Positions 12,901 through 57,219 of a stretch of 64,000 nt of DNA are shown in pieces. The notes below the pieces were generated by a model, which saw only the letters and a list, made by a program, of their open reading frames with translations, had not been told where the DNA came from and did not search any database. Positions within the stretch are counted from its first letter, which is position 1, and each line of letters begins with the position of its first letter. This DNA comes from Prevotellaceae bacterium UBA1720 (GTDB lineage: Bacteria; Bacteroidota; Bacteroidia; Bacteroidales; Bacteroidaceae): the NCBI GenBank assembly GCA_002317475.1, contig DCIS01000122.1:7881-71880 (forward strand). Direction: 5' to 3'. A program made the position numbers and the translations under genes.

Positions 12901-13021
12901 CTACGTACAGCCTACGTATAGCCTACGTACAGCCTACGTACAGCCTACGTAAACGTACGGTGTTTGTACGGTGATTGTACGGTGATTGTACGGTGTTTGT
13001 ACGTATATAGTACGATGTCTC
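12901..13021. repeat. 11-bp phased TACG-core tandem array A
   Basis: CTACGTACAGC x4-5, then TACGGTG(A/T)TTG x4, then TACGTATATAG/TACGATGTCTC. TAC starts fall at 12902, 913, 924, 935, 946, 956, 967, 978, 989, 13000, 13011. Confidence 0.9.
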
Positions 13022-26894: not shown

Positions 26895-26936
26895 CAAGAG
26901 TACACCTCTTATCAGCGAACACTTCAATATAAAAGA

Positions 26937-26958
26937 CCCGAAGCATCTCTGCCTCGGG
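26937..26958. terminator. hairpin between the convergent rsmF-like and carB genes
   Basis: CCCGAAGCA-tctc-TGCCTCGGG forms a 9-bp stem with 1 mismatch. Flanks are T-rich on both strands. Confidence 0.45.
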
Positions 26959-26973
26959 CCTTTATATTATGGA

Positions 26974-27027
26974 TAGGTCTTTCCTAGGTTGTTCTAGGGA
27001 TTCCTAGGAGTTTCTAGGTTATCCTAG
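26974..27027. repeat. 10-bp phased CTAG array D
   Basis: (A/C)TAG cores at 26974, 984, 994, 27004, 014, 024. The array runs up to the carB stop codon (27030). Confidence 0.85.
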
Positions 27028-32639: not shown

Positions 32640-34094
32640 ATGACAATTCAAGAACTTGATCCCCAGATTATCTGGAAGAATTTCTATCTGTTGACACAAG
32701 TACCTCGTCCAAGTGGTCACCTGGAGAAGGTACAGCAGTTCCTGCTCGACTGGGCCAAGGAGCGTGGCATTGAGGCATGGAAGGACAATGCTGAGAACAT
32801 CGTGATGCGCAAGCCCGCCACTCCCGGCTATGAGAATCGTCAGACTGCCGTACTGCAGGCTCACATGGATATGGTGCCTCAGAAGGTGGACGAGAGCAAT
32901 CATAACTTCGAGACCGACCCTATCGAGACCTACATTGATGGTGATTGGGTAAAGGCAAAGGGTACAACCTTAGGTTCGGATGACGGTATGGGTGTAGCTG
33001 CCATGATGGCTGTCTTTGAGAGCAATGACCTCGAGCACGGACCACTGGAGGCCCTCATCACGGCTGACGAGGAGACCTGCATGTATGGTGTGAACAACCT
33101 CTCGGCTGATACCTTGAAGGGTGACATCCTGCTGAACATTGACAATGAGACCATGGGCGAGTTCGTCATCGGTAGTGCTGGTGGTGTGAACATCACTGCT
33201 TCGCTGGGTTACAAGGAGGTGGAGCCCGAGCAGGGTGACGTAGCTATGAAGATTACCTTGAAGGACCTCAAGGGTGGACACTCTGGTCTGGAGATCTGCG
33301 AGGGTCGTGCCAATGCCAATAAGTTGATGGCTCGCGTCGTTCGTCAGGCTATCCAGGATGATGATGCACGTCTCTGTTCATGGCATGGTGGTAACATGCG
33401 CAATGCCATTCCCCGTACCGCTGAGGTAGTGCTGACCATCCCCGCTGAGAACCAGGACGACTTGAAGGAGTTGGTAGACTATTGCCGTGGTGTGTTCCTG
33501 GCTGAGTTCCGTGGTGTTGAGGAGGAGTTGACCCTCACCGTAGAGCCTACAGAGATGCCTAAGGGTCAGATGCCCGAGGAGATTCAGGACAACGTAGTGA
33601 ATGCCATCACGGCTTGTCATGACGGTGTGCTGCGCTATATTCCCAGCATTCCCGAGGTGGTTGAGACCAGCTCTAACCTGGGTATCATCAACATCGCTGA
33701 TGGCGAGGCTACCGTGCTGATCCTGGCACGCTCGAGCAACGAGACCATGATGGAGTACATCCAGGAGATGCAGGAGGCTTGCTTCTCGATGGCTGGCATG
33801 AAGGTGGAGTATGGTGGTCAGTATGGTGCTTGGCAGCCCAACTTCGACAGTCCCATCACCGCTACCATGGTACAGGTGCACAAGGATCTCTTTGGCGAGG
33901 ATGCCAAGGTACAGGTTTGCCACGCAGGCCTCGAGTGCTCTATCATCGGTGGTGTCTATCCCAAGATGGACCTCGTAAGCTTCGGTCCTACCCTTCGTTC
34001 GCCCCACACGCCCAACGAGCGTTGCAATATCCCCTCAGTGGCTAAGTTCTGGGTGTTCCTGAAGGAGTTGCTGAAGAATATACCGGTGAAGTAG
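32640..34094 (+). CDS. pepD: aminoacyl-histidine dipeptidase (M20 family)
   Basis: 484 aa: PRPSGHLEKVQQFLLDWAKERG, HMDMV, TTLGSDDGMGVA, DEETCMYG. Confidence 0.93.
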   Translation: MTIQELDPQIIWKNFYLLTQVPRPSGHLEKVQQFLLDWAKERGIEAWKDNAENIVMRKPATPGYENRQTAVLQAHMDMVPQKVDESNHNFETDPIETYIDGDWVKAKGTTLGSDDGMGVAAMMAVFESNDLEHGPLEALITADEETCMYGVNNLSADTLKGDILLNIDNETMGEFVIGSAGGVNITASLGYKEVEPEQGDVAMKITLKDLKGGHSGLEICEGRANANKLMARVVRQAIQDDDARLCSWHGGNMRNAIPRTAEVVLTIPAENQDDLKELVDYCRGVFLAEFRGVEEELTLTVEPTEMPKGQMPEEIQDNVVNAITACHDGVLRYIPSIPEVVETSSNLGIINIADGEATVLILARSSNETMMEYIQEMQEACFSMAGMKVEYGGQYGAWQPNFDSPITATMVQVHKDLFGEDAKVQVCHAGLECSIIGGVYPKMDLVSFGPTLRSPHTPNERCNIPSVAKFWVFLKELLKNIPVK

Positions 34095-34109: not shown

Positions 34110-34136
34110 CCCTCCCTACCACTTCGTTAGGGAGGG
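34110..34136 (+). terminator. hairpin after pepD
   Basis: CCCTCCCTA-ccacttcgt-TAGGGAGGG forms a perfect 9-bp stem. No clear T-run follows. Confidence 0.4.
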
Positions 34137-34154
34137 AGTAGATACAATTTGACT

Positions 34155-34299
34155 GTAGGAAATTCTAGGTGGTCCTAGGAAATTCTAGGGAATCCTAGAG
34201 AATCCTAGGTAATCCTAGGTGGTCCTAGGTGGTCCTAGGTGGTCCTAGGTAGTCCTAGGTAATCCTAGGGAAATCCTAGAGAATCCTATATAATCCTAA
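34155..34299. repeat. 10-bp phased CTAG array E (about 15 units)
   Basis: CTAG-type cores at 34155, 165, 175 ... 265, then 276, 286, 296. The core units are GGTCCTAGGT and AATCCTAGGT. Confidence 0.95.
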
Positions 34300-34300
34300 C

Positions 34301-34330
34301 AAGGGTACTCACGAGAGTGTGGGTACCCTT
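34301..34330. repeat. GGGTACCC-core hairpin module
   Basis: AAGGGTACTCACGAGAGTGTGGGTACCCTT is related to AAAGGGTACTCACACGGGTACCCTTT at 43289-43314. Confidence 0.7.
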
Positions 34331-34350
34331 ATTATTATAGTAATTATAGT

Positions 34351-34374
34351 AATTTGTTAGTTAGTTAGGTTAGG
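34351..34374. repeat. TTAG-motif copy (F orientation)
   Basis: AATTTGTTAGTTAGTTAGGTTAGG. Confidence 0.9.
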
Positions 34375-34451
34375 TTGTTAGTATGAAATGCACTGAGGGC
34401 TGAGCCTCTTGCGTTGTTAGTATGCAATGCACTGAGGGCTGAGCCTCTTGC
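34374..34451. repeat. 2 x 39-bp tandem direct repeat
   Basis: GTTGTTAGTATG(A/C)AATGCACTGAGGGCTGAGCCTCTTGC occurs twice. A third partial unit, GTTGTTAC, overlaps the stop of the 34456 gene. Confidence 0.9.
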
Positions 34452-34455
34452 GTTG

Positions 34456-36120
34456 TTACTTTGCCCCCATGACTTCGGTGGTTTTCTTCAGATATTTCTC
34501 TGTGAGTTTGATCACCTGGTTACGCGTCTTCTCGGCTTCTTTTGAGAGGTAGCCATACTTTCCAATCAAGGCAAGGTGGTGGTTGTTTTGCTTGTTGAAG
34601 AACTCCAGCAAAGACTTGTAGATCTCTTTTTCCAGTTTGGGTTGTGTGGTCAGACCGTATGTCTTTGCGAGCTTGATGAGTTCCTTGATCTGTTTGTCCA
34701 GTTGCGTGTTCTGCTGGTATATCTGCTTGAAGTAGATGTCCATGCTGCTCCATTTCCTCACTTTGCTGGAGCCATTGAGGATGATGGTCTTCTCGTTTTG
34801 TGTGCCAATCATTTTATACAAGTCCTCAGTGAGGTCTATGTTCTGCCCGACTGCCATGCTCTTCGCCTCTATGGTTGCTTTCTGCTCAGGGGTGAGCTTT
34901 TCGAATGGGTCACTTGATGCACGAGATGCCTCTGGGTCATAAACTATTGCCACATCTCCTTCATCATTTATTGCAACAGTATCAGGAATGTAGACATCGT
35001 CATCAATGTAGACACCGTCATCAATGTAGACACCGTCGGGAACTAAGACTGTATCGGCAATCCAAACGTCCTCATCATACTCATCATACTCGTCATACTC
35101 CTCATCATCCTCATAGCCTCCAGTCAGCTCCACGTCGTCATTCTCATGGCCAAGGAAGAAGCTCCGGTGCGATTTGCGACGTAGGCGTGCCTGGTAGTCG
35201 TTGTCGCCTTCGTAGTAGCCGTTGTGGGTGGTGATGCGGTAGGTCTCACCGGGTATCATGTCGATGTTGGTCCATAGTTTGCAGAGCGAACCATCAGGCA
35301 TCACGGTACGGATACGTCCTGCCATAGGTTTGTCGATGTCTACCGTTACACCAAACTGATGGTTCCTTGACACGGGCATGGGGAGCACGTCGTTGTGCGT
35401 CTTCATGTACTCTTTCAGCACAGAGTATTGGTCGGTCATCATCGACAGTTCGGTCATACGGTCGTAGGTATCAGCCACATAGAAGATGTAGAGCGAGTCG
35501 TTGAGGTCGTAGCCCACACGTCCGTCCAGACGGAAGGTGCTGCTCGAGCTTTCCATGCTCCTCTCGTAGAGGTCAGGGCGGAGCGAGGTGATCTTGTAGA
35601 TATCGCCCTCTACCGTGCCTGTTTCGTCTACTCGTTCCCACACGATGGCGTAGGCATCACGCAGTTGTGGATTATCGGGGTTCTTGCAGCACATGAGCCA
35701 CATCGTCTGCTTGGAATTGGTGCGCAGGTTCAGACGGTTGACTCGCTGAGAATCCTTGGTGGGAACGGTGAGTTGGAACAGGTCCTCCTTGCCTGGAGTG
35801 ATGAGCAGGAACTGGTAGCTCTTGGGCTCGTCCTGTAGAAAACTCTTGCCCACGGCCAGCAGTTCAGGGCTGTTTATACCACACTTGAAGTGGTCGATCT
35901 GCTGACGCGACTCTATGATTCCCGTGTTGGGGTTGCGGTTCACCTCGAAGTGGCGGTTCATGCTGTTTCCGTATTCGAGGTCAATAGCGTTCAGGGCATC
36001 CATCACGTGGATGGGGTATGGACTGTTGTCGGTACTTGCTTTGCGCGTCTTGGGTGTCTGTGCGCTGACTGTGGTTGCGAGGCTGCATGCGATGAGCAGC
36101 AAAAGGAATATTTTTTTCAT
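34456..36120 (-). CDS. secreted protein of unknown function with an acidic D/E/Y-rich repeat region
   Basis: Signal peptide MKKIFLLLLIACSLATTVSAQ, an EDDEEYDEYDEYDED stretch, and three in-frame 18-bp tandem repeats (34989-35042) encoding D(D/G)VYID. It is the last gene of the ECF sigma operon. Confidence 0.7.
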   Translation of the reverse strand: MKKIFLLLLIACSLATTVSAQTPKTRKASTDNSPYPIHVMDALNAIDLEYGNSMNRHFEVNRNPNTGIIESRQQIDHFKCGINSPELLAVGKSFLQDEPKSYQFLLITPGKEDLFQLTVPTKDSQRVNRLNLRTNSKQTMWLMCCKNPDNPQLRDAYAIVWERVDETGTVEGDIYKITSLRPDLYERSMESSSSTFRLDGRVGYDLNDSLYIFYVADTYDRMTELSMMTDQYSVLKEYMKTHNDVLPMPVSRNHQFGVTVDIDKPMAGRIRTVMPDGSLCKLWTNIDMIPGETYRITTHNGYYEGDNDYQARLRRKSHRSFFLGHENDDVELTGGYEDDEEYDEYDEYDEDVWIADTVLVPDGVYIDDGVYIDDDVYIPDTVAINDEGDVAIVYDPEASRASSDPFEKLTPEQKATIEAKSMAVGQNIDLTEDLYKMIGTQNEKTIILNGSSKVRKWSSMDIYFKQIYQQNTQLDKQIKELIKLAKTYGLTTQPKLEKEIYKSLLEFFNKQNNHHLALIGKYGYLSKEAEKTRNQVIKLTEKYLKKTTEVMGAK

Positions 36121-39060: not shown

Positions 39061-39160
39061 ACAACGTACATTGCACGTACAGACACCGTATAACCTACGT
39101 ATGGACACCGTAAGTGTACGTAGGCTGTACGTAGGCTGTACGTAGGCTGTACGTATAATC
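39061..39160. repeat. 11-bp phased TACG-core array B
   Basis: Contains GTACGTAGGCT x3 (TACG at 39117, 128, 139, 150). This is the reverse complement of the CCTACGTACAG unit of array A. GACACCGTA is the reverse complement of the TACGGTGTC unit in arrays A and C. Confidence 0.9.
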
Positions 39161-43288: not shown

Positions 43289-43320
43289 AAAGGGTACTCA
43301 CACGGGTACCCTTTTGTTTT
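43289..43320 (+). terminator. rho-independent terminator after the primase-helicase gene
   Basis: AAAGGGTAC-tcacacgg-GTACCCTTT followed by TGTTTT. Confidence 0.65.
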
Positions 43321-43328
43321 AGGAAGAC

Positions 43329-43401
43329 CTAGAAAGCCTAGGAAAGCCTAGGAAAGCCTAGGAAGTCCTAGATAATCCTAGATAATCCTAGATAATCCTA
43401 A
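43329..43401. repeat. 10-bp phased CTAG array F
   Basis: GAAAGCCTAG x3, then GATAATCCTA x3. CTAG cores fall at 43329, 338, 348, 358, 368, 378, 388, 398. The array runs directly into the TTAG motif. Confidence 0.9.
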
Positions 43402-48600: not shown

Positions 48601-48608
48601 GGAAAAGC

Positions 48609-48723
48609 CTAGGAATACCTAGGAAAGACCTAGGAAGGTCTAGGAAGGTCTAGGAATACCTAGGAACACCTAGAAAATCCTAGCAAATCCTAGTAAACCC
48701 TAGTAAACCCTAGAGAATCCTAG
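48609..48723. repeat. 10-bp phased CTAG array G (12 units)
   Basis: CTAG cores at 48609, 619, 630, 640 ... 720. The array begins 9 nt after the GH51 stop and precedes the terminator. Confidence 0.95.
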
Positions 48724-48736
48724 ACACAAACAAAAA

Positions 48737-48760
48737 CAGCCCTTGCAAATGCAGGGGCTG
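48737..48760. terminator. bidirectional rho-independent terminator
   Basis: CAGCCCTTGC-aaat-GCAGGGGCTG has T-runs on both strands (CTCTTTTA on plus, TTTTTGTTTG on minus). Confidence 0.7.
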
Positions 48761-55704: not shown

Positions 55705-57057
55705 ATGAACTGGGAGCAACTACTTTCCACACAACGACTGGGTATGGAAAACCAGCCAACAAGGGCTGATGACCGCACTGAATTTCAGCGTGATTATGAC
55801 CGTCTGATCTTCTCCGCACCATTCCGTCGTCTTCAGAACAAAACACAGGTATTTCCTCTTCCTGGAAGCATCTTTGTGCACAACCGACTGACACATTCGC
55901 TGGAGGTAAGTAGTGTGGGCCGTTCGTTGGGCAACGATGTTAGCAGAATTCTCTTGCAGAAACACCCCTGGCTCTACAATACCCACCTCACAGAACTGGG
56001 CAGCATCGTGTCAGCAGCCTGTCTGGCTCATGACATGGGTAATCCTCCCTTTGGGCATAGTGGAGAACGGGCTATTGGTACATACTTCTCGGAAGGTGCA
56101 GGTCAGTGGCTCAAGGACTACGTTTGCGAAGAGACTGGCGATTCCCTGACACCCGAGCAATGGCAAGACTTGATACACTTTGAGGGTAATGCCAATGCTT
56201 TCCGTCTGCTTACCCACCATTTTAATGGCCGGAGAAAGGGCGGTTTCGTAATGACCTACTCTACCCTGGCCAGCATTGTGAAGTACCCTTTCACCAGCGA
56301 TTTAGCAGGTTCTCATCGAAAGTTTGGATTTTTCCGTTCAGAGATAGAAGACTACAAGCTAATCGCAGAGACCCTGGGTCTGAAGAAACTTGAGGCACCC
56401 GAAGGCAGCATCCGTTATGCGCGTCATCCCTTGGTTTATCTGGTAGAAGCAGCTGATGACATCTGTTACGAAATCATGGATATTGAAGATGCCCACAAAC
56501 TAAAAATCCTCACAGAAGAAGAGACCAAAGATTTGCTTCTGGGATTCTTTGAAGGGGAGCAACTGAATCACATCAAAGCACGACTGGAAAGCGTAGAGGA
56601 CATCAACGAACAGGTGGTTTACCTGCGCAGCGTGGCCATCAACTGTCTGGAAGGCGAATGTGTGAATGTCTTCGTAGAGAACGAAGAGGCCATCCTCAAT
56701 GGCACTTTCGAAGGTTCGCTCATCGACCACATTTCCGAACATCCTCGCAAGGCCTACAAAACCTGCGAGGCAACATCGTATGACAGAATCTATCACTCTA
56801 AGAATGTAATTGACATTGAGATTGCCGGTTTCAAAGTCATCACAGAGTTGACAGACCTGATGATGCATGCCGTGACACATAGTGACAGAGCCTACTCCCA
56901 GCTACTTATCAATCGCGTCTCCACACAATACGAAATCCTTGCCCCAACTCTGTATGAGCGTATAATGGCCGTACTGGATTACATCTCGGGCATGACTGAC
57001 GTCTTCGCCCTTGACCTCTATCGCAAGATCAATGGCATGACTCTACCAAACGTATAA
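55705..57057 (+). CDS. dgt: dGTPase-like triphosphohydrolase (HD domain)
   Basis: DRTEFQRDYDRLIFSAPFRRLQNKTQVFP, RLTHSLEV, LAHDMGNPPFGH. Confidence 0.9.
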   Translation: MNWEQLLSTQRLGMENQPTRADDRTEFQRDYDRLIFSAPFRRLQNKTQVFPLPGSIFVHNRLTHSLEVSSVGRSLGNDVSRILLQKHPWLYNTHLTELGSIVSAACLAHDMGNPPFGHSGERAIGTYFSEGAGQWLKDYVCEETGDSLTPEQWQDLIHFEGNANAFRLLTHHFNGRRKGGFVMTYSTLASIVKYPFTSDLAGSHRKFGFFRSEIEDYKLIAETLGLKKLEAPEGSIRYARHPLVYLVEAADDICYEIMDIEDAHKLKILTEEETKDLLLGFFEGEQLNHIKARLESVEDINEQVVYLRSVAINCLEGECVNVFVENEEAILNGTFEGSLIDHISEHPRKAYKTCEATSYDRIYHSKNVIDIEIAGFKVITELTDLMMHAVTHSDRAYSQLLINRVSTQYEILAPTLYERIMAVLDYISGMTDVFALDLYRKINGMTLPNV

Positions 57058-57152
57058 TGACCGTATAAACAACGTACAAACAACGTACAAACAACGTATA
57101 AACAACGTATGTATACGTACACTATACGAAGGCTGTACGGTGTCTGTACGGT
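57050..57152. repeat. 11-bp phased ACGT-core array C
   Basis: AACAACGTACA/AACAACGTATA units, then GTACGGTGTCT. ACG starts fall at 57050, 061, 072, 083, 094, 105, 115, 126, 137, 148. The first unit overlaps the dgt stop. Confidence 0.9.
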
Positions 57153-57219
57153 GTTGAATTCATCGCCGCACACAAGAAAACAGAATGCTTTATTGCAAAA
57201 ACCGAGCGTTTTCCCCCTA

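Follow-up and report, generated by a model that had tools for sequence, protein, structure and literature searches.

In Proteobacteria, REP, BIME and REPIN elements consist of a single imperfect palindrome of 20-40 bp, are associated with a RAYT transposase and bind gyrase, IHF and Pol I; REP stem-loops also protect the upstream cistron. Arrays read by ribbon-helix-helix proteins (the 11-bp iterons of R1 parC, the omega heptads and the 8-bp MetJ boxes) occur once or a few times per replicon, beside the genes that they control. Two other classes are made up of short repeated words: long simple-sequence repeats with units of 5-11 nt, described as intergenic, sporadic and usually of period 7 (Mrazek et al. 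2007, as summarized in PMC4679880); and the TAACTGA direct repeats of marine Beggiatoaceae, cyanobacteria and a few Bacteroidetes, for which a post-transcriptional role has been proposed (MacGregor 2015, PMC4679880).

The DNA analysed here, a stretch of 64,000 nt referred to as the window, is part of contig C79 in a MAG of rumen Prevotella type (2.62 Mb, 188 contigs, 47.6% G+C, 68% complete) and contains four tandem arrays of the palindrome CTAG with a period of 10 bp. As with the REP-type elements, dozens to hundreds of non-coding copies are dispersed in the genome, mostly just past genes and between convergent genes (79 arrays of at least three units, none of them inside a called gene and four in divergent junctions); the repeats are palindromic, predicted to form hairpins and probably transcribed with the upstream gene; and the family sequence varies among related species. 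The REP/BIME comparison drawn in the original prediction is apt for niche and copy number. The CTAG arrays differ, however, in that each is a tandem series of 10-bp units, in which a 6-bp palindromic core alternates with a freely varying spacer, and in that no RAYT accompanies them. The ribbon-helix-helix operators and centromeres are similar in having 4-12 contiguous units of 7-11 bp with a conserved core, but the roughly 80 CTAG arrays occur at unrelated gene 3' ends and have no known partner protein. With the long simple-sequence repeats, as PMC4679880 summarizes them, and with the cyanobacterial STRR heptamers, the CTAG arrays share an intergenic location, a sporadic phylogenetic occurrence and short head-to-tail units, of a length that is not a multiple of three, repeated beyond chance. 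Unlike those repeats, the CTAG units are not 'simple', since they combine an invariant core with a match of 37-41% at the last spacer positions, a period of 10 and a stop-anchored position. The likeness to TAACTGA lies in a short word repeated in tandem in intergenic DNA, dispersed, gene-oriented and phylogenetically patchy. TAACTGA is, however, a non-palindromic 7-nt word found mostly a few nucleotides upstream of start codons (PMC4679880), whereas the CTAG unit is 10 nt long, has a palindromic core and lies a few nucleotides past stop codons: in tandem junctions, 17/23 arrays are within 15 nt of the stop and 0/23 within 15 nt of the start. Nothing on tandem CTAG or CCTAGG arrays, in Prevotella or elsewhere, was found in full-text literature searches, and the two palindromic-core families (CTAG and CTATAG), their stop anchoring and the swap of cores between siblings appear to be new details.

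All four arrays in the window were recovered by TRF as period-10 repeats (26974-27027, 5.3 copies; 34156-34288/98, 13.2 copies; 43320-43400; and 48608-48724), and direct reading confirms the positions at which they were first noticed. The array that was reported initially, array 2 (34155-34299, plus strand), consists of 12 intact cores and three decayed units, where direct reading shows TGTAGG at the 5' end and both CCTATA and CCTAAC at the 3' end; the total of about 15 units is as originally counted, and the 10-bp period is broken by one 11-bp step. It lies 61-70 nt downstream of a pepD-like stop codon (34092-34094), and the intervening DNA contains a hairpin, CCCTCCC...GGGAGGG (34110-34136, plus strand), that is paired in the minimum-free-energy fold. 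Because a terminator-like hairpin of 13 pairs followed by ATTATTATAG (34301-34330, plus strand) comes directly after the array, array 2 is located between the stop codon and the terminator. Further repeats occupy the junction at 34334-34458: a TTAG motif, a 9-bp ATTATAGTA repeat and 2.2 copies of a 39-bp unit (97% identical), each unit with a GAGGGCTGAGCCTC hairpin. The 39-bp series runs up to the stop codon of the gene at 34456 on the minus strand, and the junction as a whole is a mosaic of five repeat types.

Array 1 (26974-27027, minus strand; five intact cores, A-rich on the minus strand) begins 2 nt past the carB stop (27030), and the intrinsic terminator hairpin of carB (26933-26962, minus strand; dG about -21.7, then TTATATTG) follows 21 nt past it. 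Array 4 (48608-48724, plus strand; 12 units, plus strand A-rich) begins 8 nt past the GH51 stop (48600), and 13 nt past its end is a terminator hairpin, CAGCCCTTGCAAATGCAGGGGCTG, then CTCTTTTAT (48737-48760, plus strand), which is common to the convergent gene. Array 3 (43320-43400, plus strand; 7-8 units, plus strand A-rich) instead follows the terminator hairpin of a primase-like gene (43290-43313). Our own gene calls, a crude ORF-based set of 1840 genes genome-wide, reproduce the six convergent junctions originally counted in the window: one gene overlap, four junctions with CTAG arrays, and one (57057/57220) with an 11-bp array.

The 79 arrays contain 561 of the 1615 CTAGs in the genome (35%), a word that is otherwise depleted more than tenfold (observed/expected 0.16 for the whole genome, 0.086 within coding sequence and 0.18 in non-coding DNA once the arrays are set aside). 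The strict 10-bp phasing with rare slips that had been proposed from the window extends to the genome, where 391 of 444 single core-to-core steps measure exactly 10 bp and the rest are slips of one base (29 of 9 bp, 24 of 11 bp); when the distances from each CTAG to the next are plotted as a histogram, the main spike is at 10 (401 cases), with a lesser one at 20. A reversed-pattern control gave 0 matches in every genome searched. Thus the four window arrays are real and far above chance, and by TRF, the spacing histogram and the reversed control the head-to-tail arrangement of the family exceeds chance as well. When the arrays are oriented, their unit reads C(0.75) C T A G G(0.77) A(0.85) A(0.70) N N, or (C)CTAG(G)AA with 2-3 free bases at a period of 10. 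Between neighbouring units, identity is 1.0 in the core but 0.37-0.41 at the final two bases of the spacer (positions 8-9). Conservation of the core exceeds that of these final positions at least 20-fold, and the core has been lost from only about 8% of internal units. The units are therefore not the near-identical ones of simple-sequence repeats, and TRF matches within arrays are 65-90%.

Identical spacers are found in 9.6% of within-array pairs compared to 1.6% of pairs between arrays, a sixfold difference, which indicates that the arrays grow by internal duplication; the alternative TRF periods of 20 and 30 bp also show that duplication often proceeds in multi-unit blocks. An odd/even lag pattern in spacer identity is apparent on counts too small for interpretation. 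Array size is modal at 5-6 units, and arrays of two units are few (about 10). At the array flanks no shared motif, conserved sequence or target duplication was found, and nothing therefore points to a mobile element with defined ends. Decayed cores fall into three classes of similar frequency (ATAG/CTAT, TTAG/CTAA and CCAG/CTGG), which rules out a directional, VSP-like decay from CTAGG to CCAGG.

Array length was compared at one locus. MAG contigs C15 (1-5612) and C154 (3452-9076) align over 5.6 kb at 86.7% identity and may represent either a duplicated region or a second related population in the same bin. In these 87%-identical locus copies the array is in the same place, after the same gene, with 8 versus 9 units and different spacers. 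Four other independent assemblies have arrays that are 100% identical; they come from the same clone and are uninformative on polymorphism. The alternative first offered, that the arrays are slippage-prone VNTRs, is weakened: spacer sharing does reveal local duplication and the two locus copies differ by one unit, but the spacers have mostly diverged. Placement also departs from that of contingency-locus VNTRs in a promoter or reading frame, as the arrays come after stop codons and none is in a gene.

These observations bear on the main rival to the reading that we favour, namely selfish or neutral expansion only, in which palindromic-core arrays self-expand through hairpin slippage, spread by molecular drive and are tolerated only just past stop codons with no function for the cell. 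Ongoing duplication, as seen in the within-array sharing of spacers, speaks for this explanation, as does the presence in the genome of several hundred further short tandem arrays with periods of 7-11. On the other hand, duplication copies whole units, yet conservation of the core exceeds that of the final spacer bases at least 20-fold; CTAG is retained in the arrays despite its depletion everywhere else; arrays of two units are few and the mode is 5-6; and one locus has kept its array across 13% sequence divergence.

The original prediction tied the arrays to convergent transcription, having seen one at every open convergent junction of the window. Genome-wide, the enrichment at such junctions is confirmed: of 60 TRF-defined arrays, 33 are in convergent, 23 in tandem and 4 in divergent junctions, against expectations of 9.8, 38.3 and 11.9 from junction counts (p=5e-15) and of 11.5, 34.3 and 14.3 from intergenic length (p=7e-12). 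The claim for every junction holds within the window but not beyond it, since only about 38 of 173 open convergent junctions (22%) have a CTAG array in the genome as a whole; the window's 4/5 is therefore a local excess, or luck.

Convergence, moreover, is not the rule that governs where arrays lie; proximity to a stop codon is. In tandem junctions the arrays start at a median of 3 nt past the upstream stop and end at a median of 72 nt before the next start, and in convergent junctions the nearer stop is at a median of 7 nt from the array. Eight ORFs terminate within their own array, seven of them on a TAG of the array itself. Arrays are also present in operon-like tandem junctions, 21-44 nt ahead of the next start. 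Genes with arrays on both sides (contigs C1 and C59) encode ordinary housekeeping and surface proteins.

The same rule was found in a replication set of about 100 loci, which were retrieved by pattern from MAGs of other Bacteroidales species. Array-bearing junctions in this set are 75 tandem, 23 convergent and 5 divergent (n=103), compared to 150, 31 and 55 among the array-free junctions of the same loci (p=1e-4), and with 75/103 array junctions tandem there, and 23/60 here, convergence is not what governs the arrays. The median distance is 6 nt to the stop versus 44 nt to the start, and in tandem junctions 50/75 arrays are near the stop versus 3/75 near the start. Some arrays in relatives do lie ahead of start codons, in the T-rich orientation. 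A single CTAG array (L058, 4837-4940) follows the stop rule in a cultured type strain, Hoylesella timonensis DSM 22865, where the upstream 221-aa ORF stops on a TAG inside the array; the presence of an array in this strain makes it usable as an experimental system.

This placement suggests that the arrays are part of the message. Separate hairpin-plus-T terminators follow arrays 1, 2 and 4, while array 3 is just past a terminator; judged from such sequence features, the arrays lie mostly between a stop codon and a separate terminator and so should be transcribed. They do not resemble intrinsic terminators themselves, because in the usual orientation their spacers are A-rich and canonical terminators come separately after arrays 1, 2 and 4. 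At the carB junction a relative with 95% amino-acid identity (G119) has the homologous terminator and the same convergent gene but no array; an unrelated 38-nt spacer occupies the place of array 1. In 41 of 54 clearly oriented arrays, and in 23/28 of those in tandem junctions, the strand with A-rich spacers coincides with the sense strand of the gene nearest upstream; A exceeds T in the sense strand of 65% of tandem intergenic DNA in this genome as background, and the excess in arrays is marginal (p=0.07-0.12). Genes upstream of arrays have a slightly higher codon bias, a proxy for expression (p=0.004).

As RNA, the arrays are predicted to fold into a beaded rod of 6-bp CCUAGG helices parted by 4x4 A-rich loops, with z-scores of -6.6 and -4.9 relative to shuffled controls; a two-unit hairpin is estimated at -7.6 kcal/mol as RNA and -4.4 as DNA. 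The resemblance to REP-type stem-loops is confined to these predicted core-core hairpins, as the spacers are unpaired and no covariation backs the fold. In particular, the bases on either side of CTAG do not covary (a T at -1 does not go with an A at +5), which leaves pairing beyond the 4-6-nt core unsupported. An Rfam scan of the window identified only a tRNA and no match to a known RNA family. A Rho loading site, with YC dinucleotides every 10 nt, was judged unlikely, since C is about as frequent as G and strong structure is predicted.

The arrays could also act as DNA. According to this alternative, one core per helical turn would make the DNA curved or anisotropically flexible, or would offer gyrase or a nucleoid protein a lattice on one face, and so ease or mark supercoils where transcription units end. 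The threefold enrichment at convergent junctions is in line with it, and so are a conserved 7-8-bp motif that resembles an iterated binding site and, by analogy, the established binding of gyrase to REP/BIME elements. Curvature, which had been anticipated from the phasing, is predicted by a wedge model with assumed parameters: the ratio of end-to-end to contour length is 0.71-0.93 for arrays versus 0.95-0.98 for shuffles, and the curvature remains below that of an ideal A5N5 array.

Phase, however, is not preserved in related arrays. Upstream of pepD, two species of the genus (G086 and G018) have CCTAGG arrays of period 10, whereas three others (G121, G117 and G066), whose flanks are 93-97% identical to those of G086, have CTATAG arrays of period 9 at the same site (comparison loci L244-L250, from G086, G121, G117, G066, G018, G128 and G024). 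The five-unit CTAGG pattern has 17 matches in G086 and 0 in G121 and G117. The CTATAG sister family (core plus 3-nt spacer, period 9) is found in 54/178 species of the genus and is absent from the source genome, where other stop-anchored arrays have a period of 7. These sequence comparisons argue against helical phasing as a conserved property of the arrays, so the principle of one unit per helical turn is not upheld, and the predicted curvature is not matched by a period of 10 in the sister family at the orthologous site. The sister family, the 7-bp stop-anchored arrays and the stop anchoring itself together argue that helical phasing is incidental. The presence of TAG in all frames on both strands, which had been pointed out for the 10-bp arrays, is an arithmetic consequence of a palindromic CTAG at that period; a six-frame stop wall is ruled out as a common principle because the 9-bp family has TAG in one frame only. 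A supercoil sink would, in addition, not be expected to be anchored within a few nucleotides of stop codons or to avoid the 15 nt before starts, nor to sit mostly in tandem junctions in other species; the patchiness of the arrays among near-identical species and their scatter on the gene tree (below) are unlike a conserved topoisomerase or nucleoid function, and no candidate protein was found. We consider a DNA-level role unlikely.

The distribution of the arrays is narrow and uneven. Arrays of at least five units occur in 33/179 species of the genus and in 0/16 genomes from other families of the order. In a scan of all GTDB species, arrays were chiefly found in MAGs of rumen Prevotellaceae and of Bacteroidales, among them bins assigned to Alloprevotella and Muribaculaceae, and the public records with the same arrays are from rumen and herbivore-gut Prevotellaceae. 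Matches in other phyla are perfect single-word repeats, each with its own unit. Among 2.9 million viral contigs only 14 have arrays of at least five units, and most of these are perfect simple repeats, which rules out a phage origin.

Turnover among close relatives is rapid. The five nearest relatives have zero arrays of three units; four of them share 95-97% amino-acid identity in carB and 88-94% in pepD, and the fifth (G009) 87% in pepD. Absence from closely related strains had been named in the original prediction as grounds for doubt if no positional pattern was found; the arrays are indeed missing from these five relatives, and the positional pattern is present. Mapped onto a pepD tree of 108 species, presence in the 23 positive ones requires 20 changes, which is not below the number for shuffled labels. 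Orthologous junctions in other species have unrelated 7-9-nt arrays, and in one species (L155, G144) two inverted ATAATTC heptamer arrays past the carB stop flank a short spacer and form a long hairpin. By these comparisons, arrays are gained, lost and core-swapped quickly between sibling species, and such rapid gain and loss between near-identical species means that no array is indispensable. What is observed directly is a dispersed, fast-turnover family set by a short palindromic core, a fixed period and stop anchoring.

Neutral expansion is consistent with this patchiness: with the empty nearest relatives, with a tree no better than shuffled labels and with the unrelated arrays at orthologous junctions. 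It fits neither the conservation of the core nor the fact that one core is shared by about 80 unlinked loci, given that the slippage arrays of other phyla each have their own perfect unit. For these reasons we regard neutral expansion alone, although it is the main rival, as rather doubtful.

That about 80 unlinked loci per genome have the same core is also an argument for a strain-variable trans factor (an RNA- or DNA-binding protein, a hairpin transposase or an R-M-linked protein) that would write, mobilise or read the arrays, with a specificity for CCTAGG or CTATAG depending on the sibling. Sibling species with different palindromic cores, even at the same site, are in keeping with such a factor, as are cores that are restriction-type palindromes on a word avoided elsewhere in the genome, the occurrence of arrays across genera (Alloprevotella and Muribaculaceae MAGs) and the under-representation of very short arrays. 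The genome does encode a 373-aa protein with a Y1 (IS200-like) transposase domain (G000:C158:4547-5665; L163:1357-2478), the only Y1_Tnp gene present, but no CTAG array is near this RAYT-like gene on C158, and its homologues are found in 10/178 species of the genus, only two of them array-positive. A RAYT/REPIN mechanism is ruled out by this lack of flanking arrays and of co-distribution. The flanks of the arrays, with no conserved sequence or target duplication, and the near absence of arrays from viral contigs also count against a trans factor, which we consider improbable. A more specific form of the idea is that, in sibling rumen Prevotella, a strain-specific factor installs or needs palindrome arrays behind stop codons, either as a mobile hairpin with switchable specificity or as a 3' UTR regulon read at CUAG; this we rate as unlikely.

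Two other repeats in the window are distinct from the CTAG family. The 11-bp TACGTA/GTACGG arrays occur at 12901-13018, 39115-39155 and 57049-57154 and at about 60 other loci in the genome, usually as composites of CTACGTACAGC, then GTACGGTGTTT, with a unit identity of 85-100%. The original prediction called the one at the sixth convergent junction related to the CTAG arrays, but the 11-bp arrays are not stop-anchored (medians 81 and 198 nt), have no orientation bias and are distributed over convergent, tandem and divergent junctions (11, 35 and 7) at background level, with no convergent enrichment. They are a separate family, possibly MITE-like. The second is the TTAG motif, a six-frame-stop motif of the GTTAGTTAG type, of which 13 of 18 genome copies are on the window's contig (window 11505-55676). 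It adjoins three window arrays, while genome-wide only 3/79 arrays have one within 200 bp; a composite element with this motif is ruled out, as the motif is nearly private to one contig.

Taken together, we favour the reading that the arrays are lineage-specific, dispersed tandem repeats with a palindromic core that occupy a REP-like niche, are prone to form hairpins and probably serve as a barrier or insulator at the RNA level, and we give it a probability of roughly 40%. Arrays would arise and grow by slipped-strand or unequal exchange, with the 6-8-nt core as the register, and hairpins between neighbouring cores (6-bp stem, 4-nt loop) would favour slippage. Because CTATAG and CCTAGG arrays share a 6-nt palindrome and a minimal-loop spacer, a single-strand (hairpin) logic is favoured, and the helical phasing of the DNA would be a by-product of unit length that is not itself selected. 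Arrays would persist only where they are harmless and would be transcribed with the upstream gene, mostly in the A-rich-spacer orientation, into a rod of 6-bp helices with A-rich internal loops. Such a rod would most likely impede 3'-to-5' exonucleases or serve as an insulator guarding the upstream cistron, as REP stem-loops do; a function of this kind, for example a REP-like role at 3' ends, is suggested by analogy. Among the observations that count against the RNA model are the inability of the A-rich spacers to pair together, the lack of covariation, the merely marginal orientation bias, the location of array 3 past a terminator, the arrays ahead of start codons in relatives and the rapid gain and loss between near-identical species. 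The reading also gives no account of the spread of the same core to about 80 unlinked loci.

The arrays mark the 3' ends of genes and, because several ORFs end inside them, call for caution in gene calling. Little is known about what makes up and shapes bacterial intergenic DNA beyond the REP model of enterobacteria, and bacteria of the Prevotella type are dominant in the rumen and in many gut communities. The CTAG family provides an unusually clean handle on such DNA, in that a fixed 4-8-nt core is built on a shunned word, its position is defined by stop codons, and siblings differ in both presence and core. It makes testable how repeats are born and dispersed, whether they act on mRNA ends and whether a trans factor sets their sequence.
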